A model generated the notes under the pieces. It made no database searches. It was not told the DNA's origin and saw nothing but the letters and a program-made list of their open reading frames with translations. A program made the position numbers and the translations under genes. Of a stretch of 42,778 bases of DNA, positions 1,181-31,716 are shown piece after piece (the stretch's first letter is position 1; every line of letters begins with the position of its first letter). The stretch lies in the sequence record SRR31156797_3857. One strand, given 5' to 3'.

Positions 1181-3367
1181 TTAAACTGGTTCGTTAGTTT
1201 TCAGAACATCATTCAAAAATGCTGTAGCATCAAAGCCACCACCTGTATCATATAAACTCATATCGACATCTTCTATTACAACGACCTGCATCTCACCGTC
1301 ATTACTTTCGACCGACAACGTGACACTATCAGCATCATTGCCAACCTGTAGTTTTCCACTATCGAGCAATACTTCAATATCATCTGATGTTGAGTCTTCA
1401 GTCAGAATAGAACCGATTTCTAAGCTGTCCTTACCTACCTCGAAGTTTTTAACGGTATCAGTACTATTATCTAATACATTATCAAGCCAAATGAACACAT
1501 TAGCTTGTTCATCGCCTTCTAATGTTTCATTACCTAATGTAGCAGATACGTTGTTGGTCTCCTCATCAGGTGAGATTGTTTGATTCACATAATCTAAAGT
1601 TACCGTTTTCTCTTCGCTTTCAGCTCCCATTGAGTCAACAACGTAATAGGTAAAATTCTGGTCTTCATCAACTGCAGGCTCTTCACCTCCAAAGCTACTA
1701 ACCACATAATTCGAACCCGTAGTAGTTGTTGTAAAATCAACTCCAACAATCGTTGTACCATCATCGGCCTTATAACTGATAGTCAAAGTATTTGTAGCCT
1801 CATCATAATAAGTACCTTCACTATCTGTTGTGTATTGCATTTCAACAGTAGTTGGTTCAGTCTCTCCATCGGCTAAAACACTGAAGTAAACGGTAGCACC
1901 ATGTTCGGATGGGTTTATGCCCTGCAAACTAAAAGTTACAGTCTCAAGTTCATTTTCAGAAAGGTTAACAGACAAGGTTTCGAATTTATTGATCCCCCCA
2001 CCAGCACCTCCGCCCTCGCCTTCAGCCACTCCATACCCAGTGCCACTATTTGTGGAGCCATTCGCTGTTAGAAACTTAACATTTGCCTCTTTGTCATGAT
2101 GCCAGCCTGTTAATACACTTTCAGCGTTATCACTGTTCAAAGTGAAAACTCCATCATCAGGAAGGTAGGATATGTTGTTAGGATCAAACTGATTTCCGTT
2201 ATCAATATCAGCCTGTTTAATTTCGACGGGGTCATTGTCACCTTCTGTGTACCATAACGTTCCGCTTTCTGGGAGGGAGGTTAATACCACATAAAGTTCT
2301 TGACTCGTGATCACGTCTTGATACGGATCGCTAAGGTCAGGTCCAGTTGCCAAGTAATCCACATCTTCATCTGAAATATAGTCGTTATCAGCACCAAACT
2401 CAGTGTCAAAAATGATTGGTATCGAGTCAGTGCCTTCTACGTTAATTGTAAAGTTTTCAGCTTGTGGAGCCTCGTTCACATTGCGTTCAAATAACTTAAC
2501 GTCCGCAATTACTGGTTCATTAATTCCGTCACTTACAGATACTTGAATAACAAAATCATTATCCATATCTTCATAATTCGGCTTCCAATCACCATCCTCG
2601 TCATATACGAGAGTAATGACACCAGTATTAGGATCGATCTCTAAGAAGTCATATCCTTCTCCCACAAAAGAATATTCCAGGCTATCACCAGCATCAGTAT
2701 CCTCCGCTTGGACCTGACCAATTACAGTTCCACTCGGTGTATTTTCGTCATAATAGAAAGCATACTGCGCTATAATCGAGTCTTCTCCTTCAGGCTCGAT
2801 TAGGGGTGTGAACGAATTACCATCGTCATCATCGTCATCGGTTGTGTATTCCGTACCGACAAAATAAGGTGGGGTATTCTCATCCTGAACTATAAAAGGA
2901 GGTTCATCTTCTAATGCTGACAAGATTGGTGGTTCATCTTCTACCAAATCTTCATTCAGGCTCTGCGTTTCGCTTAAGCTCTGACGTGAATATCCGGAAG
3001 TGCTGAACGCTGTAGCAGCGATGAGACTAGCAAGTTGCATGATGACGGTACCACTGTTACCTAATGCGGACCCATTTGCCCCACCAGCGGCGGTTGCTTG
3101 ATCTTCATTAAGTGTCGGGTCAGCCCCTTGCTCTAATTGCCCAATGATCTGAGCAATTTCGTCATCAAAATTTAAGTTTAGTGCACCTTGCTCACTTCCC
3201 GGAACTTCTTCCGCCGTCACTTGAGGATTGGCTCCATCTCCGACGGTCACGACAACTTCACCAGGCGCAGGCACTGCACCAGCTGCGAGTTCACGAATCT
3301 GACCTTGCCTATCGATAACCAAAGTGGCATTAGCAAGCATAAATTGGCTAAAAGTACGTGCGTCCAT
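1181..3367 (-). CDS. Retention-module (LapA-like) T1SS-secreted adhesin with a cadherin-like domain and a C-terminal T1SS target domain
   Basis: Start revised to MDARTFSQF (SD GGGAG). N-terminal DDEIAQIIGQLEQGADPT...ATAAG retention motif; cadherin motifs DENTPSGTVIGQVQAEDTD, LEIDPNTGVITL and NVNEAP; C-terminal ANVFIW...DTVKNFEVGKDSLEI. Very acidic. Confidence 0.85.
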   Translation of the reverse strand: MDARTFSQFMLANATLVIDRQGQIRELAAGAVPAPGEVVVTVGDGANPQVTAEEVPGSEQGALNLNFDDEIAQIIGQLEQGADPTLNEDQATAAGGANGSALGNSGTVIMQLASLIAATAFSTSGYSRQSLSETQSLNEDLVEDEPPILSALEDEPPFIVQDENTPPYFVGTEYTTDDDDDDGNSFTPLIEPEGEDSIIAQYAFYYDENTPSGTVIGQVQAEDTDAGDSLEYSFVGEGYDFLEIDPNTGVITLVYDEDGDWKPNYEDMDNDFVIQVSVSDGINEPVIADVKLFERNVNEAPQAENFTINVEGTDSIPIIFDTEFGADNDYISDEDVDYLATGPDLSDPYQDVITSQELYVVLTSLPESGTLWYTEGDNDPVEIKQADIDNGNQFDPNNISYLPDDGVFTLNSDNAESVLTGWHHDKEANVKFLTANGSTNSGTGYGVAEGEGGGAGGGINKFETLSVNLSENELETVTFSLQGINPSEHGATVYFSVLADGETEPTTVEMQYTTDSEGTYYDEATNTLTISYKADDGTTIVGVDFTTTTTGSNYVVSSFGGEEPAVDEDQNFTYYVVDSMGAESEEKTVTLDYVNQTISPDEETNNVSATLGNETLEGDEQANVFIWLDNVLDNSTDTVKNFEVGKDSLEIGSILTEDSTSDDIEVLLDSGKLQVGNDADSVTLSVESNDGEMQVVVIEDVDMSLYDTGGGFDATAFLNDVLKTNEPV

Positions 3368-3692
3368 ATTGTGCTCCCATGAGCCTGTCTCAGCTCTGTG
3401 GCCTACGCTACGCCCCCCAAAAAATGCGCAGCTTCCCATGCTTTAACGTTAGTTGGTGGCTGCTTAAGCATCAACTAAATTACTAGCACTACAGCCTCTA
3501 CAATGACTAAGGTATCAATAAATAAGGAAAATAATCGTTGGTACTTTTTTGCACTAAGCTCTCACTTTTTATGTTTATAAACTAATATAACTTTAACTAT
3601 ATAACTATCTATAACAGCTCAAAACTAAACCAAAAGAATTAACAACATCATTGGTCTGGTACGAAATAATTCGAACTATAAGGAGCGTCATA

Positions 3693-5006
3693 GTGAAACA
3701 GCAACTTTCATTTCTAGCTGGATGCTTGCTCGTATTATCTGCCCCAGCTTCATCTCAAACACTTGAGCAAGCCGTTGCCATCGCATTAGCAACTAATCCT
3801 GAAATCAAGAGCAGTTACAACCAATATGTAAGCTCTGTTAAAGAGAGTGACGCTTCCGGAGGTAACTATCTACCGACTATCGATTTAGATGCGGGGATTG
3901 GCTACGAAGGTATTCGGCCTGCTTCGTCAACTGGACGAGATGACACCGATTTAACCCGTAAAGAGGCCAGTATCATCCTTAACCAACTCCTATGGGATGG
4001 TAACGGTACACTTAACGATATGGACAGAACCGCGGCTGAAGCAGAGTCGACTCGGTTGCAACTTTTAGATGACGCATCAAATTTGGCACTTCAAGTGACC
4101 GATGTGTACTTAGCTGCTGTCAAGGCGACTGAGATTTTGGCTTTATCTGAAAGTAACCTCTCCGTTCATATCGACATCTATCGCGATATTAAACGCCGTG
4201 TAGATTCTGGAATTGGGTCGACAGCTGACTTAACACAAGTAGAAGCACGGATTGCCAAAGCGCAAGGTAACCTACTCGCAGCACAAAACAATCTGTTTGA
4301 TACTCATACTCAGTTTCGCCGATTAGTTGGCCAAGAGCCTTTAGGCCTTATTTATCCGCGAGCCGATGAATCAAAAATCCCGTTATCGCTCTCGGATGCG
4401 TTAGTAGAAGCGTTTGATAGCCACCCAGTGATCAAAATAGCCAATGCCGATGTGGACGCAGCGCGATTCCAATACAAGCAGTCAAAAGCCCCCTATTACC
4501 CAACGTTTTCCATCGAAGCTCGCCAAACTTGGCGTGATGATGCCGGTGGTTATGAAGGGAATGCGGATGAAACCGTCGCTATGCTTCGCATGAACTACAA
4601 CATATTCAATGGCGGTAGTGACAGTGACCTCAGTGAAAGCGCGGCATATCAACTCAATAAATCAAAAGACTTACGTGATAACGCTTATCGTCAAATTGAG
4701 GAAAGCCTACGCCTATCCTGGAGTGCGCTTGACTTAACTCTCCAACAGAAAAACTTTTTAGCCGACCACGTTGACTCATCGGCAGAAACCGTCGTCGCCT
4801 ATGAGAAGCAGTATGGGATTGGCCAGCGAACACTACTGGACTTGCTAAACACCGAAAACGAGCTGTTCGAAGCGCGCAAGGAGTACTTAGATGCACACTA
4901 TGCTGAGCAGTACGCTAAGTATCGAGTGATGAACGCGACAGGTGTTCTTATCGACGCACTGTTGGTTGATATCCCTCAAGAATGGACGACGGAAGTGGAG
5001 TACTAA
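3693..5006 (+). CDS. TolC-family outer membrane protein (LapE/AggA-like T1SS channel)
   Basis: GTG start after SD AAGGAG; signal peptide; QTLEQAVAIALATNPEI, YLPTIDL and GQRTLLDLLNTENELF motifs. Confidence 0.92.
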   Translation: MKQQLSFLAGCLLVLSAPASSQTLEQAVAIALATNPEIKSSYNQYVSSVKESDASGGNYLPTIDLDAGIGYEGIRPASSTGRDDTDLTRKEASIILNQLLWDGNGTLNDMDRTAAEAESTRLQLLDDASNLALQVTDVYLAAVKATEILALSESNLSVHIDIYRDIKRRVDSGIGSTADLTQVEARIAKAQGNLLAAQNNLFDTHTQFRRLVGQEPLGLIYPRADESKIPLSLSDALVEAFDSHPVIKIANADVDAARFQYKQSKAPYYPTFSIEARQTWRDDAGGYEGNADETVAMLRMNYNIFNGGSDSDLSESAAYQLNKSKDLRDNAYRQIEESLRLSWSALDLTLQQKNFLADHVDSSAETVVAYEKQYGIGQRTLLDLLNTENELFEARKEYLDAHYAEQYAKYRVMNATGVLIDALLVDIPQEWTTEVEY

Positions 5007-5008
5007 TA

Positions 5009-5626
5009 ATGAACAAAAGCACTCTATTAATAGCAATCCTAACCACATTGGTCACTAGTGCTCCAGTCATGAGTGAGGATGAGTACCAATACAAGGAAAC
5101 GCCAACCGCGAATCAAATTGCTGATTTGCAAGATGACGACCAAGATGGCGTTGTGAATGCACGCGATATCTGTCCGGGAACCCCTGCCGGATCACAAGTC
5201 GATAATGATGGCTGTGGAGAAATTCGTCGTGAGCAGGATCTGCGTCAATTACGCATCCTTTTCGCTCACGATTCGTATGAAATTAATCCGGTGTTCGCCA
5301 ACCAAATTCAAACCATGTCTGATTTTTTGAAAACCTATAAGTCGGCATCCATTGAGATCCAAGGCTACACCAGTAAAGTGGGTACCAATGAGTACAACTT
5401 AGATCTATCGAAAAAACGGGCAGAAGCCGTTGAGCAAAAGCTACTCTCATACGATATCGACTCTAAACGAGTGAGAATCATTGGTTATGGTGAAACACGT
5501 TTGGAAGATGAAGGCGATGACCCCGCAGCACACGCGATAAACCGAAAAGTGACCGCTACTGTGGTCGGACTTAAAGAGAAAGTAATCGAAGAATGGACGA
5601 TATTCTCCACCCTAGAAAAACGGTGA
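5009..5626 (+). CDS. OmpA-family peptidoglycan-binding protein with thrombospondin type-3-like Ca-binding repeat
   Basis: DDDQDGVVNARDICPGTP; IEIQGYTS...YNLDLSKKRAEAV...GYGE...NRKV; start revised to MNKS. Confidence 0.9.
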   Translation: MNKSTLLIAILTTLVTSAPVMSEDEYQYKETPTANQIADLQDDDQDGVVNARDICPGTPAGSQVDNDGCGEIRREQDLRQLRILFAHDSYEINPVFANQIQTMSDFLKTYKSASIEIQGYTSKVGTNEYNLDLSKKRAEAVEQKLLSYDIDSKRVRIIGYGETRLEDEGDDPAAHAINRKVTATVVGLKEKVIEEWTIFSTLEKR

Positions 5627-21520: not shown

Positions 21521-21767
21521 GAGCCCTCAACAACGCTCCCAATTCTCTCCAATTTACTAAGCTTAGTCACTCTACCTTCACCTTTCTCTCTCGACTATCT
21601 TAGACCCATTTTCACCACTCTCAAGTTACGGCTCCACTTCCTCTACTTTTTCTTTAACTTAAGAACATACGTCAAAGCCTTTCCAAGGCCCTCTCGCAAG
21701 CTTCCAAGCAATTCAGTCGCCAGTGTTATACTTCCGATTTAATCGCTTACTGATGAGGCTACAGAAA

Positions 21768-21905
21768 ATGAAAAAGAAGACTTTGACTGAGCGAGAGCTA
21801 CTCGAAGGATTAGATGCTCATACTGCTCATGCTGATGAATTGGCGGAGTTGGTTGATACAGAGATAGACTTTGACAAAGCAAGGGAAGATTGCAGCCACG
21901 AATAG
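21768..21905 (+). CDS. 45-aa acidic peptide resembling the C-terminal toxin-binding part of MazE/ChpS/PemI antitoxins
   Basis: MKKKTLTERELLEGLDAHTAHADELAE; extended -10 TGtTATACT at 21724-21732; SD GAGG. Confidence 0.5.
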   Translation: MKKKTLTERELLEGLDAHTAHADELAELVDTEIDFDKAREDCSHE

Positions 21906-21975
21906 ATGAATTTATCGCAGCTGCTTACCTCTAGTTGATCTGAGGGGCTAACTCATTTTTGGACAGAACCTTGTT

Positions 21976-22000
21976 AGAGCCAAAACCTAGTTTTGGCTCT
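21976..22000. terminator. Hairpin between the convergent peptide and SMC genes
   Basis: agagccaaaac-cta-gttttggctct. Confidence 0.55.
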
Positions 22001-22067
22001 TCAGATTAGCTTGTTTAACAAATATGTGCCTGTCCATCGTCACAGAGGAAGAGATAATCCGTTATTT

Positions 22068-24422
22068 CTATTGCGTATCGACAACTAAGCGCGCCTGTTC
22101 CATAAAGTTAATCCGACCCACTGGCATTCCGAACTTTTTGTACTTATAACGGAAGTAAGCAGACATGCGATCTTCATGCGTTGAGATAATAATCTGACGG
22201 TTTGCAAACTCAGTACGCAACAATTCAATGAAACCCGCAACATTAATTTCATCTAATGTCTGTACCGGGTCATCGATTAGCAATAAACTGTGTTTCGCAT
22301 ACCGTTGATTAAGCGCTAACGTAAAAGATAGAACTAAAGCGGAAAGTTGACCAGAACTCATGGAAAACACGACATCATGGTCTCGCCCTGGCGTTTCACG
22401 GAAAGCAATTGAATTCCCATTGTTCTCAATGAAGATCCCTAATCCTTGTTGATAACTTTGCATCAGTCGGCCTGAATAAATATGAAACAAGATTTCGATC
22501 TCTTTCACAATCGATTCTAGATAGCGTTTTTTTTCGTTTTCGTATATTTCCTTGAGCTTTTTCAAGTGCCCTCTAACCTTACTGGCATTTTTCACCTGTT
22601 GGTCAGCGTCCTTATACGCCTGCTCACAAGTCGTTGCATATATTGAAGACGCAAGAGACTGTTGCTGTCGCATGTAGTTAGTTTTCATCTCGATCTGCTT
22701 AAGCGTTACTTGCCTTACCGCCGACGAATCGTTGTTAAATACTACCCTATATAAGCGGTCAAAGTCGTTATAAAGACAGCTGTCGTCTACTGGTTTAAAC
22801 TTGGAATGTACTCGCTTATCCAGCTCAGACAATTGTAATTGAGCATTCTGATCAAAGCTCTCAACTAGCAGATCCTGAAATTCAATTCCAGCCACCTCCA
22901 ACTGCTGGCTGTAATTCTGCAACCAATGGAGTTGCTCTTGACTCAGCGCAACAAGCTTACGTTTGAAGGCAACCTTATCTTGCTGCTGTTGCAGATAAAT
23001 ACCCAGAGCTTGCTCAATTGGTAACAGGTATGTCTTCTTAAATTCAGCTAACTGCCCAGTCAATTGACTGTTTTGCTGTTCAGCCAATAGCTGTAGCGTT
23101 TCTCCCTGTTTCTTGATCCCATTAAGCAGTGATTCAACTGAGTCCCAGCTATGACCACATATAGGGCAAACTTCTGTAGGTTTTCCATGTAACTGGTGCT
23201 GTGTAAAGGCTTTCACCAACTGCTCACGCATCGACACTAGAACAGCTAAGCTCTCATCCAATTTGTCAATCGAGGTAATATGCTGTTTTAGTAGTTCGAC
23301 CTGACGACCGAACTCGCTCGGCGTAATATTCTCTGGGAGTAGATCAGTAAGGACATGAGGAAGAGTAAGCTGATCATGTTTTACAGCCTTCACAATATCC
23401 TTAAACGCATCAATTATCTGTATAGCGGCGTCATATCGCTGTAATTCTAGCTCCCACGTCTGTTGTTGAGGGATACGATGCACAAACATAAGCATCCGCT
23501 GTTGTAACTCTCTCTGCGGCAGGAGCCTTTTTTTAAGCTCCTGATTATAAATATGATTCTCATAATGGGCAAAATTCTTAACAAATCTCCCTATACGGAA
23601 CAACTCACCATCCGTTGATAGCCATTGCTCAAACTGTTGAACTTCACACTCTAAAACTTCCCGATCCCAAGGTTGATCGGTAACATTGATTAATCGTTTG
23701 TAATCAACAGGTCCACCATCCGGTAACAACTGCTGTTTGGCAGTTTCCCATTTGGCTTTTAGTGCTTTAACCTCCTGCTTTTTTTGCGTGCCACATAACT
23801 TACCGATTTTGCTAAATGACAGGTTGATATTATTGATTTTCTGCTGGATTTTCCCAATTTCAAACAGGTGAGCGATTTGTAGCTGGCGATCTTTTTCTTT
23901 CTGTTTCAGTAACCGAGTATTTTCTTCCTGCTCCACATAATGGAACAATTCAAAGTCTCGCTTATACTCCGCTCCTTGTAACTCAGAAAGATACCCTACC
24001 TCATCGGAAACCGGCAAATTGCGCTCAGCTTCCAGAGCCGTTAATTCATATAAAGGTAACTTTAATTCCTTCAGTCCCTTATGCTTATCTAGTTCAGTCT
24101 TACAAGCCGCCCGTTCAAGGAACTTGGTTTGTTCGTCTATTACCACCTCGGCACGTATGGATAACCAAGCTCCCGCTTTTGCTTTATTAAATAGCCATGG
24201 GCATCCTAGTTTCTGGCTGCGCCCATCCACCGTAAGTTCTTCTAGCTCGACGTAACGCCGAATTGTCCCAGTCAATAGCAACTCTAAAGCATCAAAAAGC
24301 GATGACTTGCCAAAGCCATTGGGACCATCGAGAACAATCAGGCGATCGTTATCAATGACTATTTCACGACGTTCAAACAGTTTGAAGTTCTGAATTACCA
24401 GACGTTTAACAGTCAAGTTCAT
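22068..24422 (-). CDS. lmuB: Rad50/SMC-like ABC ATPase; Lamassu LmuB-like sensor
   Basis: Walker A GPNGFGKS, Q-loop YVEQ, coiled coils with central CPICG zinc hook, signature MSSGQ, Walker B/D-loop LLIDDPVQTLD, H-loop STH; overlaps the upstream gene. Confidence 0.85.
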   Translation of the reverse strand: MNLTVKRLVIQNFKLFERREIVIDNDRLIVLDGPNGFGKSSLFDALELLLTGTIRRYVELEELTVDGRSQKLGCPWLFNKAKAGAWLSIRAEVVIDEQTKFLERAACKTELDKHKGLKELKLPLYELTALEAERNLPVSDEVGYLSELQGAEYKRDFELFHYVEQEENTRLLKQKEKDRQLQIAHLFEIGKIQQKINNINLSFSKIGKLCGTQKKQEVKALKAKWETAKQQLLPDGGPVDYKRLINVTDQPWDREVLECEVQQFEQWLSTDGELFRIGRFVKNFAHYENHIYNQELKKRLLPQRELQQRMLMFVHRIPQQQTWELELQRYDAAIQIIDAFKDIVKAVKHDQLTLPHVLTDLLPENITPSEFGRQVELLKQHITSIDKLDESLAVLVSMREQLVKAFTQHQLHGKPTEVCPICGHSWDSVESLLNGIKKQGETLQLLAEQQNSQLTGQLAEFKKTYLLPIEQALGIYLQQQQDKVAFKRKLVALSQEQLHWLQNYSQQLEVAGIEFQDLLVESFDQNAQLQLSELDKRVHSKFKPVDDSCLYNDFDRLYRVVFNNDSSAVRQVTLKQIEMKTNYMRQQQSLASSIYATTCEQAYKDADQQVKNASKVRGHLKKLKEIYENEKKRYLESIVKEIEILFHIYSGRLMQSYQQGLGIFIENNGNSIAFRETPGRDHDVVFSMSSGQLSALVLSFTLALNQRYAKHSLLLIDDPVQTLDEINVAGFIELLRTEFANRQIIISTHEDRMSAYFRYKYKKFGMPVGRINFMEQARLVVDTQ

Positions 24423-25110
24423 AGCCATCCTTGCCTAATTCTGAAGTCATAAGTGCCAGTAAATTTTCTGGGGTGATTTCCTCTAAGGGATTTTGGTCAG
24501 CTATATCCGAGAGAGCCAATTCAGTCGCCCTCAAAACCTCAGCATTGGGTGACTTCAAGACTTTTTCCTGAATATTCTGTTCAAGGTTGGTCAGATCCGC
24601 TTTACTTGAGCCTTGAATCGTAAGTGCTGATACCTTTATCGCCAACCTGTACAGCAAACTTTGCCAGCCTCCCTGATTGTACTGCGTTTTGTATGCGGTA
24701 AATGTCTGAGTATCAGTCAGAACATTGCGAAACACTGACTCCAGCCCATTCTGTTCAACTATCAGCTGTAAAGCTTCCAGTTCATCAGACGTATAAGGTA
24801 AAACATGCTTTTTAAAGAAGTAACTATCCTCTTCTGCGTGATGTACCATTTTGCTGGTTTTCTCATTCAAACTTTCGGTCTGCCATACAATCAACAAGTT
24901 AATATTTTTCTCAAGTGCAGGGTCGACCGTCGTTTTCTTGCAGTCGCTCAGCCAATTTGCCTGAAGCTCAGGAGAAAGCTCTGGTTCACCATGAACCACT
25001 AGCCAGTAACCCGTTTTATCCGGCTCGCTGTATTCATACAACTCCAATTCAGTCAAAGCTTTTCGCTCCATCCTCTGCAATTCGAACAACTTTTCAATCA
25101 ACTTCTGCAT
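24406..25110 (-). CDS. lmuC: ABC-three-component middle component (LmuC-like)
   Basis: LEKNINLLIVW...AEEDSYFFKKHVLPY pattern typical of ABC-3C middle components; overlaps both neighbours. Confidence 0.7.
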   Translation of the reverse strand: MQKLIEKLFELQRMERKALTELELYEYSEPDKTGYWLVVHGEPELSPELQANWLSDCKKTTVDPALEKNINLLIVWQTESLNEKTSKMVHHAEEDSYFFKKHVLPYTSDELEALQLIVEQNGLESVFRNVLTDTQTFTAYKTQYNQGGWQSLLYRLAIKVSALTIQGSSKADLTNLEQNIQEKVLKSPNAEVLRATELALSDIADQNPLEEITPENLLALMTSELGKDGYELDC

Positions 25111-26392
25111 CTTTTAAGCTCTCAGGTACATTATTCAAAGAAACCAGCCCCACCTGTTGAAAACTGCCGATACTAGTTCCTATAATCGTTTCTTCTTCCG
25201 TGGCATCCACACCAATTTTCACACAAGTGATGGATGGCCTATCTATAGCACTGGTAATCAACGCCCCACACTCAAATAAGCATTCAACATCTTCCTCAAG
25301 TGCCTGTTGCAAAATATCATGGCAGACCACGTCTTGGTGTTCTGCTGCGGTATGAATCCCTGTTGGATAATAGAATCGACCGTCAACTTGCCATGCGAAA
25401 TGCACCCTTTCACTATCTGGTTTCTGCGCTTTAACCAACTTATGGAAAATTGTAAACAGCCCCTGCCTCATAGAGTCACGGTCAAGCGTTTGGTCCTTAA
25501 ACTCACTTAGTGTGGTAAATCGCCCTCTTCGATGTGGCATCGTTGCGCGAAGGAAAGCCTTCATACCTTGACTATCCAAGTCAGTGATTGTTGCTATGCA
25601 GTCATCTAACTTGGCGTATGCTGCTTGTGGTATCGTATCGTGCTGCTCGCAGAATTCTTGATAGTAAGCTCCAATATCAATCTGCAAGCGGCTAAGGAAA
25701 TACTCTTCATTGTTAAATCGCTCATAATCGTCAGCTTCCAGAATTTCATAGATATCCGAAAACTCGATAAACTCATTAGCTGCAATTGCTGTCTGGTTCC
25801 GATTTGATTGGTGTATTTGGTGATGTACCATGACAACTTTAGTGTTCACTATCGCTTCGAGGATCTCTCGGATTGAAGTGCAAAGCATTGCTTTCCAAGG
25901 AAACAAACAATCTACAACTGATATCATTTCCCTGATCTGAGCTTCAATATACCTATCAACCTCATCGAGTGGACAATAAAGCCTGGAATGCTCCTCATTT
26001 GCACCTGGTTGTAGTGGGTAGGGATACAACTCTACAGGTTGGTATTCCTGTTCGAATGATTCTGGTAGATCCGTTATTTCACGAGCGACATGAAAATATG
26101 CCGTCTGGATACCCCGTTCTGTGGCATTTTCCTTTTGGCTATTAATGCCTGCGCGATAGCCAGAGAACAACGTAGCCTTGTAAGCTTTGACTTGGTGCAA
26201 TGATAAGCACTGGTTTGCTCGAAAAATCGCAAAATCATCCTGACTTTCCAACTGCAGTTTAAGATCGCGATTCGCCTCATAGTCATTAGTCATTAGCCGA
26301 AGACAATGATACAGAGCGAGCTTTCCCTGATATACAAACCCACTCCATGTTGAAATCGCTGTATGAGGGTCGCTCTGGAGGTTTTGAGTCAT
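25094..26392 (-). CDS. lmuA: Lamassu LmuA-like effector: N-terminal Cap4/DUF4297-type PD-(D/E)xK endonuclease plus C-terminal domain
   Basis: AISTWSGFVYQG...LESQDDFAI...LHQVKAY restriction-fold catalytic motifs; ATG 26392 with SD AGGA. Confidence 0.78.
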   Translation of the reverse strand: MTQNLQSDPHTAISTWSGFVYQGKLALYHCLRLMTNDYEANRDLKLQLESQDDFAIFRANQCLSLHQVKAYKATLFSGYRAGINSQKENATERGIQTAYFHVAREITDLPESFEQEYQPVELYPYPLQPGANEEHSRLYCPLDEVDRYIEAQIREMISVVDCLFPWKAMLCTSIREILEAIVNTKVVMVHHQIHQSNRNQTAIAANEFIEFSDIYEILEADDYERFNNEEYFLSRLQIDIGAYYQEFCEQHDTIPQAAYAKLDDCIATITDLDSQGMKAFLRATMPHRRGRFTTLSEFKDQTLDRDSMRQGLFTIFHKLVKAQKPDSERVHFAWQVDGRFYYPTGIHTAAEHQDVVCHDILQQALEEDVECLFECGALITSAIDRPSITCVKIGVDATEEETIIGTSIGSFQQVGLVSLNNVPESLKDAEVD

Positions 26393-26497
26393 ATAATTTC
26401 CTGTCACCTAAAATCAGGGTCACCCACAAAGTACTCACGAGGTTTCGTAACGCCTTCGGAAAATAACTAACGAGCAAGTATCTAATATAATTAATAA

Positions 26498-26506
26498 AGT
26501 ATACCA
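26498..26506 (-). promoter_or_regulatory. Extended -10 promoter candidate for the Lamassu operon
   Basis: TGgTATACT on the minus strand about 105 bp upstream of lmuA. Confidence 0.45.
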
Positions 26507-26836
26507 CCAATCATATAGAAATCGGACTTGTATTAGATCAAAGTGGCTGGCTAATTAATGATGAAAGGAGCAGGTTCCAAATTTGGGCATGGCCTGAGTA
26601 GCAGGCATTTTGCCATATGAAAGATAATCTATTTAAAGTTGAGCACTAACACGAAAAGGGGCAGAAATGTTTCAGCCAGTTCAGGCTGAAACGAAGATGG
26701 ACAGAAACGGGTTTCGAAAAATCAAACATTAGAAAATCATGAATAACACTGGTATGGCAGGCTGCCACATTTTCCGTACAGGACGACTGGATAAGATAGT
26801 TAAGTTTTCCTTACATTGGGACAGCATATGCCTTAA

Positions 26837-28177
26837 TTAACTCTGATACTTATCCAGCTTGTTGTAGAGCGTTTTTATACTTATTCCTAAGTCCTCTGCT
26901 GTTTCTTTTTTGTTGCCTTCATTTTCTTCAAGAGTGTTAATAATGGCGGCTTTTTCTATTTCTTCTAAAGTCACACCAGCTGGCACTCTATCCTCTAATG
27001 TTGTCCCTGTTTCTAAAGGAGGAGTATCAAAAATTAGGTGTTCATCTTTAATCGTATCGTCCGCCAAAATGAACGCTCGCTCGACACAGTGTTTTAATTC
27101 TCTAACATTGCCAGGCCATGTATGCGCTGCGATTTTTTCGAGGGCTGAGGCTGTAATAGCTTTTGGAGCCGCTTCATCCGCATTCCGGTGAGCGATGAAA
27201 TGTTCAGCAAGGCCGACAATATCGCTACCTCGTTCTCTGAGAGGCGGAATATTGATAGGGAAGTGAGCTAATCTAAAATAGAGGTCTTCTCGTAAAAATT
27301 GCTCTTCAATAGCCACTTGTGGATCACGGTTGGTGGCGGCGATGATACGAGTGTTGGCAATACAGAGTGTGTTACTGCCGACTGGGCGATACTCGCCAGT
27401 TTCAAGAACTCGCAGTAGTTTAACTTGATGTTCAAGAGGCATTTCGGTGACCTCATCAAGAAACAATATCCCGCCCTCAGCTTGCTTAAAAACACCTTGG
27501 TGCGTTCGGTTGGCGCCTGTAAATGCTCCTTTTTCATGACCAAATAGTTCACTGTCGACTAACTCTGGGCTGATGGCGCCGCAGTTAATGGCAATAAAAG
27601 GCTGCTCCTTTCTATCACCGGCAAGGTGGATAGTCTGCGCGACGAGCTCTTTACCAGCACCGCTTTCACCAATGATCAATACGTTGGCCTCAGTTTTCGC
27701 CACTCGTCTGAGGGTGCGATACAAGTTATGCATTAGCCTTGAGGAGCCGACTAACATACCAAACTGGTCTAAGTCGCTTGTGGATATTTCTTTCCCCTCG
27801 CCCTGCTTTTCTAGGAAGTATTGACTAAAGTCCGCTAGCGTATCGGCCAGAATTTGGATATCTACCGGCTTTCTATAATGAAAAATGGCGCCACTTTTCA
27901 TCATCATGTCTAAATTCTTGTTGGGTGCACCGGAGCCGATGATGACCAAATCCAATTCTTCCAACCCAGTGGCACTGGATAGTGCGACAAAATCATCATT
28001 GGTGAATTGAGATACTTCAACAATGGCGGCATTGGGTTGAAGTCGTTGTAGGCTATCTATCCAGTGTTCGTTGTCATTATTGCTAATCGTATCAAATCGT
28101 GACAACTCCTCCAGAGAGCTTATTTGAGACAATAATTTCTGATCTTTCAACTCTACGAACAGTGTTGGTAATCCCAT
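26837..28177 (-). CDS. sigma-54-dependent enhancer-binding protein (degenerate receiver, AAA+, Fis-HTH)
   Basis: GESGAGKE, ELFGHEKGAFTGA, LFLDE, REDLYFRL, WPGNVREL and LGISIKTLYNKL motifs. Confidence 0.95.
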   Translation of the reverse strand: MGLPTLFVELKDQKLLSQISSLEELSRFDTISNNDNEHWIDSLQRLQPNAAIVEVSQFTNDDFVALSSATGLEELDLVIIGSGAPNKNLDMMMKSGAIFHYRKPVDIQILADTLADFSQYFLEKQGEGKEISTSDLDQFGMLVGSSRLMHNLYRTLRRVAKTEANVLIIGESGAGKELVAQTIHLAGDRKEQPFIAINCGAISPELVDSELFGHEKGAFTGANRTHQGVFKQAEGGILFLDEVTEMPLEHQVKLLRVLETGEYRPVGSNTLCIANTRIIAATNRDPQVAIEEQFLREDLYFRLAHFPINIPPLRERGSDIVGLAEHFIAHRNADEAAPKAITASALEKIAAHTWPGNVRELKHCVERAFILADDTIKDEHLIFDTPPLETGTTLEDRVPAGVTLEEIEKAAIINTLEENEGNKKETAEDLGISIKTLYNKLDKYQS

Positions 28178-28380
28178 GATTTAACTCTCTTTCAACAGTA
28201 GTGAGGGGGATGATAGCACAACAATAGTGAGAGAGATGACAGCACGAGGTATAAGGAATGAGAATGTATGGCTTTTCTTCCCCGGTTTTTGTGAATAATA
28301 CTGAGTGAATATTTAAAACAATAGATAAAAATTGGGAAATATTATTATTGTGTATCACTAATTCGGACGAGATAAATATT

Positions 28381-28440
28381 TATATTTTTTACAAACACTC
28401 CTTGTAAATTATTCATCCTCCATCATTGAAAATATTAACA
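28381..28440. promoter_or_regulatory. Candidate upstream activator (enhancer) sites
   Basis: TGTAAAAAATATA (minus strand, 28381-28393), TGTAAATTATTCA (28403-28415) and TGAAAATATTAACA (28427-28440). Confidence 0.5.
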
Positions 28441-28471
28441 GTATTTTCTATTTTCAACATAAATACTTTTA

Positions 28472-28484
28472 ATTCAATGAGTTG
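28472..28484 (+). promoter_or_regulatory. Candidate IHF site
   Basis: attcaatgagttg, a near match to WATCAANNNNTTR, between the UAS and the -24/-12 promoter. Confidence 0.45.
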
Positions 28485-28490
28485 TATTTC

Positions 28491-28506
28491 TGGCATGTGG
28501 TTTGCT
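28491..28506 (+). promoter_or_regulatory. sigma-54 (-24/-12) promoter of the osmY-like operon
   Basis: TGGCATGTGGTTTGCT with GG-N10-GC spacing. Confidence 0.85.
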
Positions 28507-28539
28507 CTAGTGATAATGCAAGTACAAAAAAGGAGATAA

Positions 28540-29091
28540 ATGATGAAAAACATTACAAGTAAAATTCTACTAACAACGGTTATTGCTACTTCTTCGTTTG
28601 CAGCGGTTGCAGATAACATGTGGAAAGAAGATACGTTAGATGCTTGGATTGATGGTAAAGCAGAAACGACACTATTACTTAACTCCAATTTGAACTCTTT
28701 TGATATTAACACTTATGTTAAAGACCAGGTTGTTACTTTAACGGGCTCAGTTGAGAACCAGACAGAAAAAGCCCTTGCCGAAGAATTATTATTAAGTCTT
28801 GATGATGTTAAGTCGGTAAAAAATGAACTTACGGTCATCGATAATGAAAAAGATAAAAATAAAGAATCAGTACAAGCCTTAACGGATACTAAAATAACGG
28901 CCATTGTTAAGACTCGACTATTATTTAATACGGAAGTAAGTGGTACTGATATCGAAGTGGAAACTAAGGAAAACACAGTAGTATTAAAGGGTTCAGTGAC
29001 GTCAGATACGGAACATGACCTTGCTCTATCTATTGCTCGTAATACATCCGATGTTGATAAAGTCATTGATAAACTTGAAGTGATTCAATAA
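28540..29091 (+). CDS. Periplasmic dual-BON domain protein (OsmY-like)
   Basis: Signal peptide; two BON repeats (DAWIDGK...VTLTGSV...[17 protein letters not shown]...VVLKGSV...VDKVIDKL); SD AAGGAG. Confidence 0.92.
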
Positions 29092-29123
29092 TAAATTTAC
29101 CAACAGATATAAGAGAGATCATT

Positions 29124-29294
29124 ATGCTTCGCTGGGCTTTAATATTTTTTATTCTTGCCATCATAGCAGCTTTATTTGGATTTGGTGGTATAGCAGGCGC
29201 TGCGGCAACAGTAGCTAAAGTTATGTTTTATATATTTGCTATTTCGTTGCTTGTATCGGTGGTAATGAATTTAGTTAACAAAAATAAGAGTTAG
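29124..29294 (+). CDS. DUF1328 (YtjA-like) small membrane protein, 56 aa
   Basis: Below the ORF-track cutoff. Manual translation: [38 protein letters not shown]...; osmY-ytjA adjacency. Confidence 0.9.
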
Positions 29295-29302
29295 GAGTTT
29301 TT

Positions 29303-29500
29303 ATGAATATCAGTACAGTTATTGTCCGTTTTCTATTGGCAACAGGTTTTGCTTTTACGCTTGCCGCATGTAGTGACGAGGGCCCCTTAGAACAAGCTGG
29401 TGAAAGAGCTGATGAAGCGGTAGAGGAAGCTCAAAATCAAATAGAGGACAGCTGTGAGAACGTGAAAGAGCAACTTGATACGGAAGATCAGGACTGCTAA
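29303..29500 (+). CDS. Small acidic lipoprotein
   Basis: Lipobox LAAC, then SDEGPLEQAGERADEAVEEA; SD AGGAG. Confidence 0.8.
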   Translation: MNISTVIVRFLLATGFAFTLAACSDEGPLEQAGERADEAVEEAQNQIEDSCENVKEQLDTEDQDC

Positions 29501-29567
29501 CAAAAGGCATTAACTCACGAATTAAATCATCCGAACCTCATAAAAAGAATTGAAGCAGGAGCTAGAT

Positions 29568-29996
29568 ATGAAAAACATATTTGATGTGCTTAAAGATAGC
29601 CATGAGAAGCAACGTCTTTTGATGGATGCGATACTCCAAACATCAGGTGATACTCAGGCCAGGCAAGAATTCTACTCCAGTCTTAAAGAAGAATTAACTA
29701 AGCATGCGGTCGCGGAAGAACGCCACTTCTATGCACCTTTAATAGAGAGCGATCAATCCGTTGATATGACTAGGCACGGTATCGCTGAACACCACGGTAT
29801 TGATAAGGTGCTTACTCAGCTTGATGACACCGACATGTCTTCACCAGCTTGGCTCACACTGATGAAGACACTTAAACACAAAGTAGAGCATCATTTAGAA
29901 GAAGAAGAGCAGCGTTTCTTTCAAACAGCTGGACGAGTTTTAGACTCAGATCAGAAAGAAACTTTGGCTCGAAAATATGAGCAAGAGATGGCTTGA
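29568..29996 (+). CDS. Hemerythrin/HHE cation-binding domain protein
   Basis: H..HAVAEE...EHH...HHLEEEE motifs; start MKNIF with SD AGGAG. Confidence 0.9.
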   Translation: MKNIFDVLKDSHEKQRLLMDAILQTSGDTQARQEFYSSLKEELTKHAVAEERHFYAPLIESDQSVDMTRHGIAEHHGIDKVLTQLDDTDMSSPAWLTLMKTLKHKVEHHLEEEEQRFFQTAGRVLDSDQKETLARKYEQEMA

Positions 29997-30049
29997 TTCG
30001 AAGTGTGACCTAAGCTTGGTCGTGAAGCGTAGGTTTTGGTTTAACAACT

Positions 30050-30076
30050 TGGGCCCATTTACGGGCCCACTTTTTT
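30050..30076 (+). terminator. Terminator after the hemerythrin gene
   Basis: tgggccc-atttac-gggccca-ctttttt. Confidence 0.75.
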
Positions 30077-30102
30077 AATACACAGAGAATTAAGGCCTCA
30101 CT

Positions 30103-31716
30103 ATGTTTATCGTTAAGTACTATATATTCATTGCTATCGCTTGTTTTTCTATAGCAGCATTTACCCCCAATGTATTACTCAGCTTACTATTGGTTTGGTC
30201 AGGTTTATCGATGTCTATCGTCAGCGCAGCCTATATCTTCGAGATACCATCAATATTTAGAAAAAAAAGTAATGGCAAAATAGCTTGGTGGATAAGATGG
30301 GCGTTTATTCCTTTTTTTCTGGGTATTCGTTTATACAATACTTGGGCGATTAAAAGAGACAAAGTCGAACCCATTCAGCAGGTGGCAGAAGGATTATATG
30401 TTTCCCGACGTCTACTCCCCTCCGATTTGTCATTTCTACAATCTCAAAATATAACGTGTATTGTTGATGTCACCGCAGAATTTGCGGGGTTAGAGAGTGC
30501 GATGACCAGCGAAGAGCTTCATTACCTCAATACCCCAGTACTCGACCATCAAGCCCCTAAGTTACGCAAGCTCAAACATGCTCTTAATTGGATAGATACT
30601 CAGATAAACCAATCAAGGTCCGTAGTTGTTCATTGTGCACTTGGACGTGGTCGCTCTGTGTTTGTAGTTGCAGCATACCTGTTAGCGAAAAATCCATCTC
30701 TGAGCGTGGAGCAAGTGCTAAAAAATATCAATGAAGTACGAAGCACTGCACGGTTGAACAGAAAGCAACTAAAGGTACTGAATGCTATCAGTGATAAGGG
30801 GCTACTCAATCTTGAAGAAAAATGCTGCCTAATTGCCAACCCTGTTGCAGGTGGAGGCAAATGGCAAACGAATGAGCAGCAGGTTATTCGAGAGCTCACC
30901 CGAAAGTTCAATTTAGACATAGTGACCACCAGTAAAGAAGTATCTGCGGAATCTCTAGCCAAACAAGCAAAAGCGCAAAATGCTTCTCATATCATCGTGT
31001 CTGGCGGAGACGGCACCGTCAGCGAGGTGGCAAGACAAATCGTGGGGACAGACACGGCACTCGGCATTATCCCATTGGGTACGGCAAATGCTTTATGCCA
31101 TGTGCTCTATGGTTTTGCGACAAAAGTGTCACCTGTTGAAAAGGCCTGCGAGGCTATTCTATCTGGCAAGTCTAAGAAAATGGATTTGGCGTACTGTAAC
31201 GATCAGCCAATACTGCTTATTCTTGGTATTGGGTTTGAAGAGAAGATGATTGATTACGCTCATCGTGAACAGAAAAATAAAAATGGCCAACTTGCTTACT
31301 TGTCCGGCTTATTTTCAGCGGTTGTGGCAGGAGAAAGTCAGTGGTTTGAAGTCACTAAAGATGGGGAGTCAACACGCGAAGCTGAATTACAAAGCTTAGT
31401 GGTTGCCAACACGTCGCCTTTTAGCACGGTCCTTGCTCAAGGGGGCAAAGAGCCAAGACCTGATGATGGTCTATTGCATATTACCTATTTAGAAAATACC
31501 GCTTCGCTTGGAGAAAGAGCTTTGGCGCTGTCTGATGTGTTGCTTTCAAGCTTAGGCCTCAAAGAACAAGCTTCATTTTTTGACTATGAGTCTGCAAAGC
31601 AAGTCAAAATAGACTCAAATCGATCGATCCACTATGTCATTGATGGAGAAAAGTTCTCTGCTGAATCACTTGAGATAAGCATCAAAAGCCAAGCTTTATC
31701 TGTTTGCATTCCATAG
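30103..31716 (+). CDS. Membrane-anchored dual-specificity phosphatase / diacylglycerol-kinase-family fusion
   Basis: N-terminal TMs; PTP loop HCALGRGRS (CX5R); DAGK motifs NPVAGG, GGDGTV, PLGTANAL, DDGLL and DGE. Confidence 0.88.
   Translation: MFIVKYYIFIAIACFSIAAFTPNVLLSLLLVWSGLSMSIVSAAYIFEIPSIFRKKSNGKIAWWIRWAFIPFFLGIRLYNTWAIKRDKVEPIQQVAEGLYVSRRLLPSDLSFLQSQNITCIVDVTAEFAGLESAMTSEELHYLNTPVLDHQAPKLRKLKHALNWIDTQINQSRSVVVHCALGRGRSVFVVAAYLLAKNPSLSVEQVLKNINEVRSTARLNRKQLKVLNAISDKGLLNLEEKCCLIANPVAGGGKWQTNEQQVIRELTRKFNLDIVTTSKEVSAESLAKQAKAQNASHIIVSGGDGTVSEVARQIVGTDTALGIIPLGTANALCHVLYGFATKVSPVEKACEAILSGKSKKMDLAYCNDQPILLILGIGFEEKMIDYAHREQKNKNGQLAYLSGLFSAVVAGESQWFEVTKDGESTREAELQSLVVANTSPFSTVLAQGGKEPRPDDGLLHITYLENTASLGERALALSDVLLSSLGLKEQASFFDYESAKQVKIDSNRSIHYVIDGEKFSAESLEISIKSQALSVCIP

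Follow-up and report, generated by a model that had tools for sequence, protein, structure and literature searches.

A long, Rad50-like Lamassu operon with a predicted Cap4-type nuclease effector in a sharply bounded 4.7-kb cassette

The lmuA-lmuC-lmuB locus and its coding state

The stretch of DNA considered here, referred to as the window, is the full 42,778-nucleotide (nt) length of sequence record SRR31156797_3857. Its minus strand carries three genes, lmuA, lmuC and lmuB, which are predicted to encode a defence system of the Lamassu (ABC-three-component, ABC-3C) type and which lie, together with a leader and a 3' tail, in a cassette of 4.7 kb (Table 1). The effector gene has its full open reading frame (ORF) at 25094-26407 on the minus strand, where it opens at a GTG; the ATG at 26392, which has an AGGTGA box a few bases upstream, gives a protein of 432 amino acids (aa). 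The lmuA and lmuC genes overlap by 17 nt, lmuC and lmuB overlap by 23 nt, and none of the three frames contains a stop codon or a frameshift. Moreover, gene lengths are the same in five other copies of the cassette. The ratio of nonsynonymous to synonymous substitution rates (dN/dS) is 0.12-0.20 for lmuA against other cassette copies (three valid comparisons; the row for copy L005 was excluded, as an indel had shifted the codon register), and against four near-identical copies it is 0.26-0.49 for lmuC and 0.14-0.16 for lmuB. All three genes are under purifying selection.

The noncoding part of the cassette consists of the conserved 271-nt leader and a 3' tail of approx. 110 nt. In an alignment of the six copies, the leader contains numerous invariant columns that continue up to the end of the cassette, and it is presumed to be a promoter or regulatory region. 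An earlier, sequence-only reading of the window had described an intact system of three overlapping genes in the order effector, middle component and SMC ATPase. The ORFs and the two overlaps bear out the order, and the open frames, the complete set of motifs described below and the recurrence in related loci bear out the intactness.

Table 1. Features of the cassette in window coordinates
Feature	Position	Strand	Description
Cassette (operon, leader and 3' tail)	21956..26663		limits of the homology to other carriers
lmuA (effector)	25094..26392	-	432 aa; predicted Cap4-type PD-(D/E)xK nuclease with an ABC-3C CTD1-type C-terminal domain
lmuC (middle component)	24406..25110	-	234 aa; MC1 type
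lmuB (Rad50/SbcC-like ABC ATPase)	22068..24428	-	786 aa
Leader upstream of lmuA	26393..26663	-	271 nt; inside the cassette; conserved in all copies
Terminal inverted repeat, lmuB-side arm	21960..21980	+	starts TGGACA, contains TGTTAG
Terminal inverted repeat, lmuA-side arm	26643..26663	-	starts TGCCCC, contains TGTTAG
Subterminal hairpin, 11-bp stem	21976..22000		15 nt inward from the cassette's 3' end

The three Lmu proteins

The translation of lmuA contains the motifs G18-F-V-Y-Q22, E49, D52-D53 and Q67-V68-K69. These correspond to the GFxYQ...E..DD...QVK nuclease motifs proposed from the sequence alone, and an alignment of 23 members supports them: Trp16, Ser17, Gly18, Tyr21, Gln22, Gly23, Lys24, Asp53, His66, Gln67, Val68, and Lys69 are invariant. 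The Pfam family CTD1 matches residues 120-382 (E 6.3e-33), and the PADLOC model of LmuA matches at E 5.7e-20. When the 23 aligned relatives were scanned singly, CTD1 was found in all of them and Cap4_nuclease in 19. In an AlphaFold2 model of LmuA, for which the mean predicted local distance difference test score (pLDDT) is 79, fold comparison assigns approx. residues 8-225 to the nuclease domain. The solved Lamassu structures (PDB 9nxx, 9hr5 and 9ux7) are among the matches, unrelated families follow at scores of no more than 8.3, and residues 226-432 have no match in the same list. The Pfam CTD1 model overlaps the rear of the nuclease domain. Since this domain reaches residue 225 or so by fold, the C-terminal domain proper would comprise approx. 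205 aa rather than the roughly 300 aa estimated in the sequence-only reading. In the model, it consists of helices, an acidic loop of low confidence (residues 394-409) and strands, an arrangement that agrees with what has been published on C-terminal domains of long LmuA (PMC12663957). An atlas look-up put it closest to a CTD7 cluster, at 0.78, which is below the meaningful range. Because of the family scans and the fold comparison, LmuA is considered a Cap4-type PD-(D/E)xK nuclease whose C-terminal domain is predicted to be unlike the solved ones.

LmuB carries a Walker A motif (GPNGFGKS, residues 35-42), Gln167, an ABC signature (SSGQ, 691-694), a Walker B motif (LLLIDD, 715-720) and His751, as well as a single CxxC motif, Cys421/Cys424, that corresponds to a zinc hook. 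In particular, Gly35, Lys41, Gln167, Cys421, Cys424, Ser691, Gly693, Gln694, Asp719, Asp720, Asp726, and His751 are invariant among 33 members. These positions and columns confirm that the ATPase possesses all ABC motifs and a CxxC hook, as had been noticed in the translation. The PADLOC LmuB model covers residues 3-772 (E 4.7e-65), and Pfam SMC_N matches in two stretches (E 1.6e-19), along with related P-loop families, in keeping with a head domain that a central coiled coil divides in two. Searched against the PDB, the LmuB family profile reaches Rad50 chains at E-values of 1e-6 to 1e-4 and does not find the solved short LmuB chains. A scan of NCBIfam gave no match to SbcC or RecN, and in two carrier genomes the cassette's own LmuB is the only match to the window LmuB at E ≤ 0.001. 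Neither result places this ATPase among the housekeeping SbcC/RecN proteins, a grouping that would have spoken against a defence system.

LmuC matches Pfam MComp1 (E 1.5e-12), and no PADLOC model of LmuC matched it. Its AlphaFold2 model (pLDDT 90.8) consists of an alpha/beta domain (residues 1-165), a flexible, low-confidence linker (approx. 160-172) and a three-helix module (173-226). Long LmuC proteins have been likened to SbcD/Mre11 and described as a globular part with a short domain tethered by a linker (Haudiquet et al. PNAS 2025, PMC12663957). The model fits this description, as it predicts a globular part and a short domain behind an unstructured linker; the published resemblance to SbcD/Mre11 was not reproduced, the scores of the comparison lying within the uninformative range of the tool. 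An atlas look-up of LmuC returned no match. With the LmuC family profile, 844 of 1.84 billion cluster representatives match at E ≤ 0.001, and stand-alone proteins of 220-250 aa make up nearly all of them.

Relatives and classification as a long Lamassu

A scan for LmuA in one genome per species yielded 138 relatives, from which 80 loci were kept. The full triad in the same gene order is present at 67 of the 80, the other 13 being interrupted or situated at the end of a contig. In the 67 triads, LmuA measures 404-446 aa, LmuC 219-251 aa and LmuB 764-792 aa; every LmuB has one CxxC motif, located at a relative position of 0.53-0.55, and the Walker B motif reads hhhhDDP in 66 of them and DAP in one. 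Because the same lengths and motifs recur at so many related loci, the triad is more than a chance arrangement.

A quick maximum-likelihood tree of 33 LmuB proteins, with Shimodaira-Hasegawa-like approximate likelihood ratio (SH-aLRT) support only, comprises sequences from Pseudomonadota, Bacteroidota, Campylobacterota and Thermodesulfobacteriota. In this tree, the window LmuB groups with Oceanisphaera, Alcanivorax and an enterobacterium, apart from the other Vibrionaceae member, and its closest relatives come from Aeromonadaceae, Alcanivoracaceae and Enterobacteriaceae. The cassette itself is rare, being present in 4 of 401 Vibrionaceae genomes. As for plasmids, 61 records hold relatives, all below 60% identity, and the plasmid relatives are at most 30% identical. 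A distant ABC-3C relative of LmuA (27% identity over 88% of the query) is encoded on plasmids of approx. 60-69 kb that come from Vibrio parahaemolyticus, V. owensii and V. campbellii associated with shrimp.

Lamassu systems have been split into a short and a long group, the latter accounting for 536 of 3,829 systems (PMC12663957). Long LmuB proteins comprise approx. 800 aa and always have one CxxC motif and a Walker B motif of the form hhhhDD, and the long systems have longer LmuC proteins and LmuA C-terminal domains. In another scheme, the Rad50/Mre11-like subfamily combines CTD1-5 with a middle component (MC) of the MC1 type and a LmuB of 800-1000 aa, and the diverged subfamily combines CTD6-12 with MC2-8 and a LmuB of approx. 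600 aa (Li et al., 10.1101/2025.03.14.643221). Because of the Pfam and PADLOC matches and the fold comparison, the window system is assigned to Lamassu (ABC-3C) in the combination of a Cap4-type nuclease with CTD1, MC1 and a large zinc-hook LmuB. By the same kind of evidence, it belongs to the long (Rad50/Mre11-like) subfamily that has already been described: LmuB of approx. 800 aa, one CxxC, Walker B hhhhDD, MC1 and CTD1 are all present, and CTD1 and MComp1 are the only ABC-3C Pfam families matched. The short Cap4-CTD7-MC3 combination (DdmABC type) was considered and rejected in view of CTD1/MComp1 and a LmuB of 786 aa with a DD Walker B.

This outcome agrees in part with what had been proposed from the sequence alone. 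The resemblance of the layout to Lamassu/DdmABC-type ABC-3C systems holds, since PADLOC calls LmuA and LmuB and Pfam calls CTD1 and MComp1. Nor is the system a near-copy of a characterised Lamassu: no solved Lamassu chain was reached by sequence, either with single proteins or with family profiles, though the entries were in the library. The proposal that it is a variant apart from the well-studied systems stands insofar as it differs from the solved ones, but the subtype is already catalogued. Similarly, the sizes of the 234-aa LmuC and the approx. 785-aa ATPase had been read correctly, but they do not mark a new variant; because of the lengths in the 67 related triads, a large middle gene and a long ATPase are regarded as the rule of the subfamily.

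Compared with other long Cap4 Lamassu systems, the window system shows no difference in kind, having the same A-C-B gene order, one CxxC, hhhhDD, MC1, CTD1 and Cap4. Its LmuA is at most 67% identical to those of named relatives outside the cassette carriers (the nearest being Oceanisphaera ostreae), and the lineage of the window travels as a bare 4.7-kb cassette. According to PMC12663957, validated systems are all short, except for a hydrolase-protease system of Bacillus cereus. The latter (strain B4077) belongs to the same long subfamily but has different effectors; the two systems were set side by side by description only.

Cap4, CTD7 and MC3 are combined in the systems that have been studied in V. 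cholerae and Salmonella (10.1101/2025.03.14.643221). In these short systems, V. cholerae DdmABC and Salmonella enterica LmuACB (solved by cryo-electron microscopy; PDB 9nxx, 9hr5), LmuB comprises approx. 600 aa, compared with 786 aa here, and its Walker B motif ends in D(Q/S/T/E) instead of DD. The V. cholerae LmuB has no hook, whereas the window LmuB has a single one, and a small MC3 and CTD7 take the places of the two-module, 234-aa MC1 and CTD1. The type I Lamassu of Bacillus has CTD12 (10.1101/2025.06.23.660979); thus, LmuAB of Bacillus cellulasensis (Cap4-CTD12, PDB 9ux7) has a different C-terminal domain, a short LmuB and no LmuC. SbcCD has been proposed as the ancestor of Lamassu (PMC12663957). 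The likeness to SbcCD/Mre11-Rad50 lies in the zinc-hook, coiled-coil ABC ATPase, and the LmuB profile matches Rad50; however, Mre11/SbcD is a phosphoesterase, whereas the window system has a Cap4-type nuclease with its own C-terminal domain. Moreover, the coiled coil of SbcC is described as longer in the literature, and the distribution of the window system is mobile and patchy.

Ends and contexts of the cassette

The cassette is shared with five carriers: Vibrionales bacterium SWAT-3 (locus L001), Vibrio sp. MA40-2 (L002), a Shewanella metagenome-assembled genome and two Enterovibrio norvegicus strains. In blastn comparisons with these loci (L001-L005), nucleotide identity of 91-97% is confined to approx. 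21957-26675, and the flanks are unrelated. Alignments and scripts place the ends at approx. 21956-21960 and at 26663. In three further public sequencing runs, contigs break at 21956, 26663, 26664 and 26665 and continue into other sequence, and a fourth run shares 45 extra bases of the window's own flank. Thus, the ends agree within approx. 3 nt in six assembled contexts and three further sequencing runs.

Short sequence features mark both ends. The arms of a terminal inverted repeat match at 14 of 21 positions, and the end pattern occurs at these two places only within the window, although the pattern was built from both and the test is therefore not independent. Near the 3' end lies a hairpin whose DNA fold has an energy of -11.5 kcal/mol, matched by none of 200 shuffled sequences (z -4.29). 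It is present in five of six copies, and in L003 its left arm is altered.

The neighbours differ from copy to copy. In the window, the cassette lies between rplY on one side and a gene for a sigma-54 activator on the other; in L001, between genes for a non-ribosomal peptide synthetase/phosphopantetheinyl transferase and an alkaline phosphatase; and in L003, between RapA and DUF3530 genes. L004 lies in an integrase-bearing island, and L002 in one that contains IS66, Gabija-like genes and part of an integrase gene. In L002, RadC, two DUF2787 genes, the integrase fragment and IS66 precede the cassette, and a Gabija-like pair (AAA_15 with an OLD-type TOPRIM, then a UvrD-like helicase; L002:12838-17054) directly follows it; from their gene content, these surroundings are classed as a defence or mobile island.

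Several copies have repeats in or beside them. In SWAT-3, an 889-bp IS4/IS5-family element encoding a 253-aa DDE transposase (L001:9276-10164) lies at the lmuA/lmuC junction, where it changes the C-terminus of LmuA (460 aa) and cuts lmuC-lmuB off from the leader. At least eight more copies of this element, 100% identical, are present in the same genome, and copies of 98% identity occur in genome G294. The approx. 250 nt right after the 3' end of the SWAT-3 cassette (L001:13314-13600) are also a repeat, found again elsewhere in SWAT-3 and in two more genomes of its genus (86-93% identity). In Enterovibrio norvegicus DSM 15893, a repeat of approx. 100 nt (L005:7613-7721) abuts the 5' end of the cassette; strain FF-33 has at least six copies of this type with 76-85% identity, three of them within 3.4 kb. 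In the window itself, the 45 nt just outside the 5' end (26664-26709) form a hairpin with a 9-bp stem (z -3.93). This stretch recurs alone, as a separate contig of one run has only 26658-26703, and another run has it beside the cassette; it looks like a small repeat element. Just beyond the 3' end lies a 45-aa ORF (21768-21905, plus strand) with no Pfam match, which might resemble an AbrB/MazE-type antitoxin at its C-terminus. Nothing corresponding to 21523-21955 follows rplY in the relatives that were compared.

Spread of the cassette

Because sharp ends are shared among copies with unrelated flanks, and because the nearest LmuB relatives are found in other families, the 4.7-kb unit has very probably moved horizontally as a block among Vibrio, Enterovibrio and Shewanella chromosomes. 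How it moved is a separate question. One tentative answer is that the cassette may be a minimal non-autonomous mobile element, moved between chromosomes of different genera by a recombinase acting in trans. Such an element, likewise proposed only tentatively, would move without target duplication and without membership in an integron, prophage, plasmid or island. On circularisation, the TGTTAG-bearing arms would form a site resembling a recombinase core, with two arms of approx. 14 nt around a short centre.

Two known kinds of element were considered and rejected. An integron gene cassette would have an attC site with R''/R' boxes at its 3' end and limits at the G|TT crossover. This does not fit, as the GTTAG/CTAAC boxes are set back from both ends by 13 nt, there is no palindrome of attC length, no fold forms at the 5' end (z -0.02), and ordinary chromosomal genes surround the cassette in the window, L001, L003 and L006. 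An element of the IS200/IS605 kind would have hairpins at both ends, whereas only the 3' end folds (z -4.29 vs. -0.02), and even this hairpin is altered in L003.

Alternatively, and with slightly less to recommend it than the tentative mobile element, the sharp ends might simply be the limits of the selected functional unit, which would have spread through transformation and through recombination that was either illegitimate or based on flank homology. The cassette contains no recombinase and shows no target-site duplication, and at six loci the similarity of the flank to the opposite cassette end is not significant (score 35.0 vs. a null of 32.7 ± 4.1; 30% of resamples as high), all of which would be expected if the ends were not recombination sites. 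A CTAA-like motif stands 11-13 nt before the junction in four of nine left flanks, as found by eye and post hoc. The end motif was not found with other cargo, which again favours limits set by selection: a 29-nt pattern of the 5' end occurs in 4 of 401 Vibrionaceae genomes, every one of them a cassette carrier, in one metagenome contig with a flank as in L003, and in no viral contig. However, independent illegitimate events are expected to leave ragged ends, and the observed ends match within approx. 3 nt even though they include the approx. 270-nt leader and the approx. 110-nt tail.

Searches for vehicles and for empty sites gave the following results. Near-identical cassette DNA is absent from 72,556 plasmids, and 50,697 phage records contain no match to a cassette protein. 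With the flanks of the window, L004, L005 and L001 as queries, no relative turned up in which the two flanks adjoin each other. Synteny between the window and its relatives stops at the rplY terminator (21522) and, in the comparison with genome G039, does not resume until approx. 26698. The sole Rfam result is a sub-threshold 'rnk leader' match, which falls on this terminator.

Proposed mechanism and alternatives

The molecular mechanism can be proposed by analogy with the V. cholerae, Salmonella and B. cellulasensis systems (PMC12663957; 10.1101/2025.03.14.643221; 10.1101/2025.06.23.660979). In short systems, LmuB2-LmuC holds a LmuA monomer via the LmuA C-terminal domain, and DNA ends and ATP turnover lead to its release, tetramer formation, DNA cutting by paired Cap4 domains and abortive infection (PMC12663957; 10.1101/2025.03.14.643221). 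In the window system, two LmuB protomers would join via the zinc hook Cys421/Cys424, and LmuB2 together with LmuC would keep a single LmuA monomeric and inactive by binding its C-terminal domain. DNA ends that are free or aberrant, as in replicating phage or plasmid DNA, would be recognised in an ATP-dependent manner, and this would alter the LmuB-LmuC scaffold. LmuA, once freed, would oligomerise so that its nuclease domains (Asp53, Gln67 and Lys69) meet, and indiscriminate DNA cutting would cause the infected cell to die or stop growing, i.e., abortive infection.

Taken together, the locus very likely holds an intact, selectively maintained long Lamassu operon with a Cap4-type DNA endonuclease as its effector. 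Several points weigh against this interpretation or its mechanistic extension. The Pfam Cap4_nuclease match of the window LmuA is weak (E 0.0031; 18.2 bits compared with a gathering cutoff of 26.2). A promoter scan found 8 sites where 10.9 were expected, none of them convincing upstream of lmuA, and a strong sigma-70 consensus was not scored in the leader. Expression is hinted at only weakly by contigs from a marine-sediment metatranscriptome, eight listed pieces of 90-99% likeness that cover most of window 21956-26436, as they come from one library and DNA carry-over is possible. The SWAT-3 copy is split by an insertion sequence, so that the cassette is not always intact. LmuA release and tetramerisation are an extrapolation, as all solved structures are of short systems. 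Finally, a literature search, which partly covered work from 2026 and lay outside the supplements of the key papers, found no experimental characterisation of a long Cap4 Lamassu; nor did it find a structure of a long Lamassu.

The main rival to the release model is a cis-acting variant that works like SbcCD/Mre11-Rad50: LmuA would stay docked at the LmuB heads via LmuC and cut only the DNA that is sensed, giving direct, restriction-like defence instead of abortive infection. This is a possible but unlikely mode of action. The single hook, the longer coiled coil and the DD Walker B motif are retained features of the Rad50/SbcC kind, and the match of the LmuB profile to Rad50 points in the same direction. 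The docking site lies near the hook in short systems, whereas AlphaFold 3 models of long systems put LmuC and LmuA at the LmuB heads, as SbcD is placed on SbcC (PMC12663957). Moreover, only the diverged subfamily has been shown to depart from the Rad50/Mre11 principle, and whether the Rad50/Mre11-like subfamily shares the principle of the short systems is left open by Li et al. (10.1101/2025.03.14.643221). However, in all solved cases cited Cap4-type domains require oligomerisation for an active site (PMC12663957; 10.1101/2025.03.14.643221), and the validated long system, like other Lamassu systems tested by Millman et al., behaved as abortive infection (10.1101/2022.05.11.491447). Both points argue for LmuA release over cleavage in cis.

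It is improbable that the operon is a passenger that is silent or in decay and at present lacks a function. The absence of a strong promoter consensus in the leader, the split copy and the rarity of the cassette among the 401 Vibrionaceae genomes would suit a passenger, but the frames are intact with all catalytic motifs in place, dN/dS ranges from 0.12 to 0.49, gene lengths are identical in the five other copies, and the metatranscriptome contigs add a weak indication of expression. A housekeeping, SbcCD-like repair module, which the similarity of the LmuB profile to Rad50 heads might suggest, can practically be dismissed, as neither neighbouring gene has a metallophosphatase domain, the Cap4 nuclease-CTD1 and MC1 genes being there instead, no SbcC/RecN model of NCBIfam is matched, the occurrence is patchy and reflects horizontal transfer, and the cassette adjoins Gabija-like genes in the L002 island.

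Other features of the window

Beyond the right-hand end of the cassette, the sigma-54 activator gene (26837-28177) is largely deleted in genome G039, where two fragments of approx. 100 nt are left; of the relatives found for the right-hand flank, G039 is the nearest, with 93.7% nucleotide identity over 28271-31451. In the same region, 30103-31716 (plus strand) encodes a 537-aa fusion of dual-specificity phosphatase and diacylglycerol-kinase catalytic domains. At the other end of the window (1181-5626), a gene for a 752-aa protein with cadherin-like repeats adjoins genes for an outer-membrane efflux protein (OEP) and an OmpA-family protein, and the group may represent an adhesin with its secretion partners.

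Significance

The window contributes one more intact long, Rad50-like Lamassu with a predicted Cap4 nuclease. The long subfamily has been proposed to be an evolutionary intermediate between SbcCD repair and compact Lamassu. The subtype itself is already known; what is new here is the sharply bounded 4.7-kb cassette. As a compact system with its own leader, it would provide a handy construct for distinguishing effector release from cis action in long systems. The less ordinary point is that the same ends recur in at least nine sequence contexts, in three genera, without a mobility gene. If a trans-acting mechanism is indeed responsible, the cassette would illustrate how single defence operons, and not whole islands, move between chromosomes.

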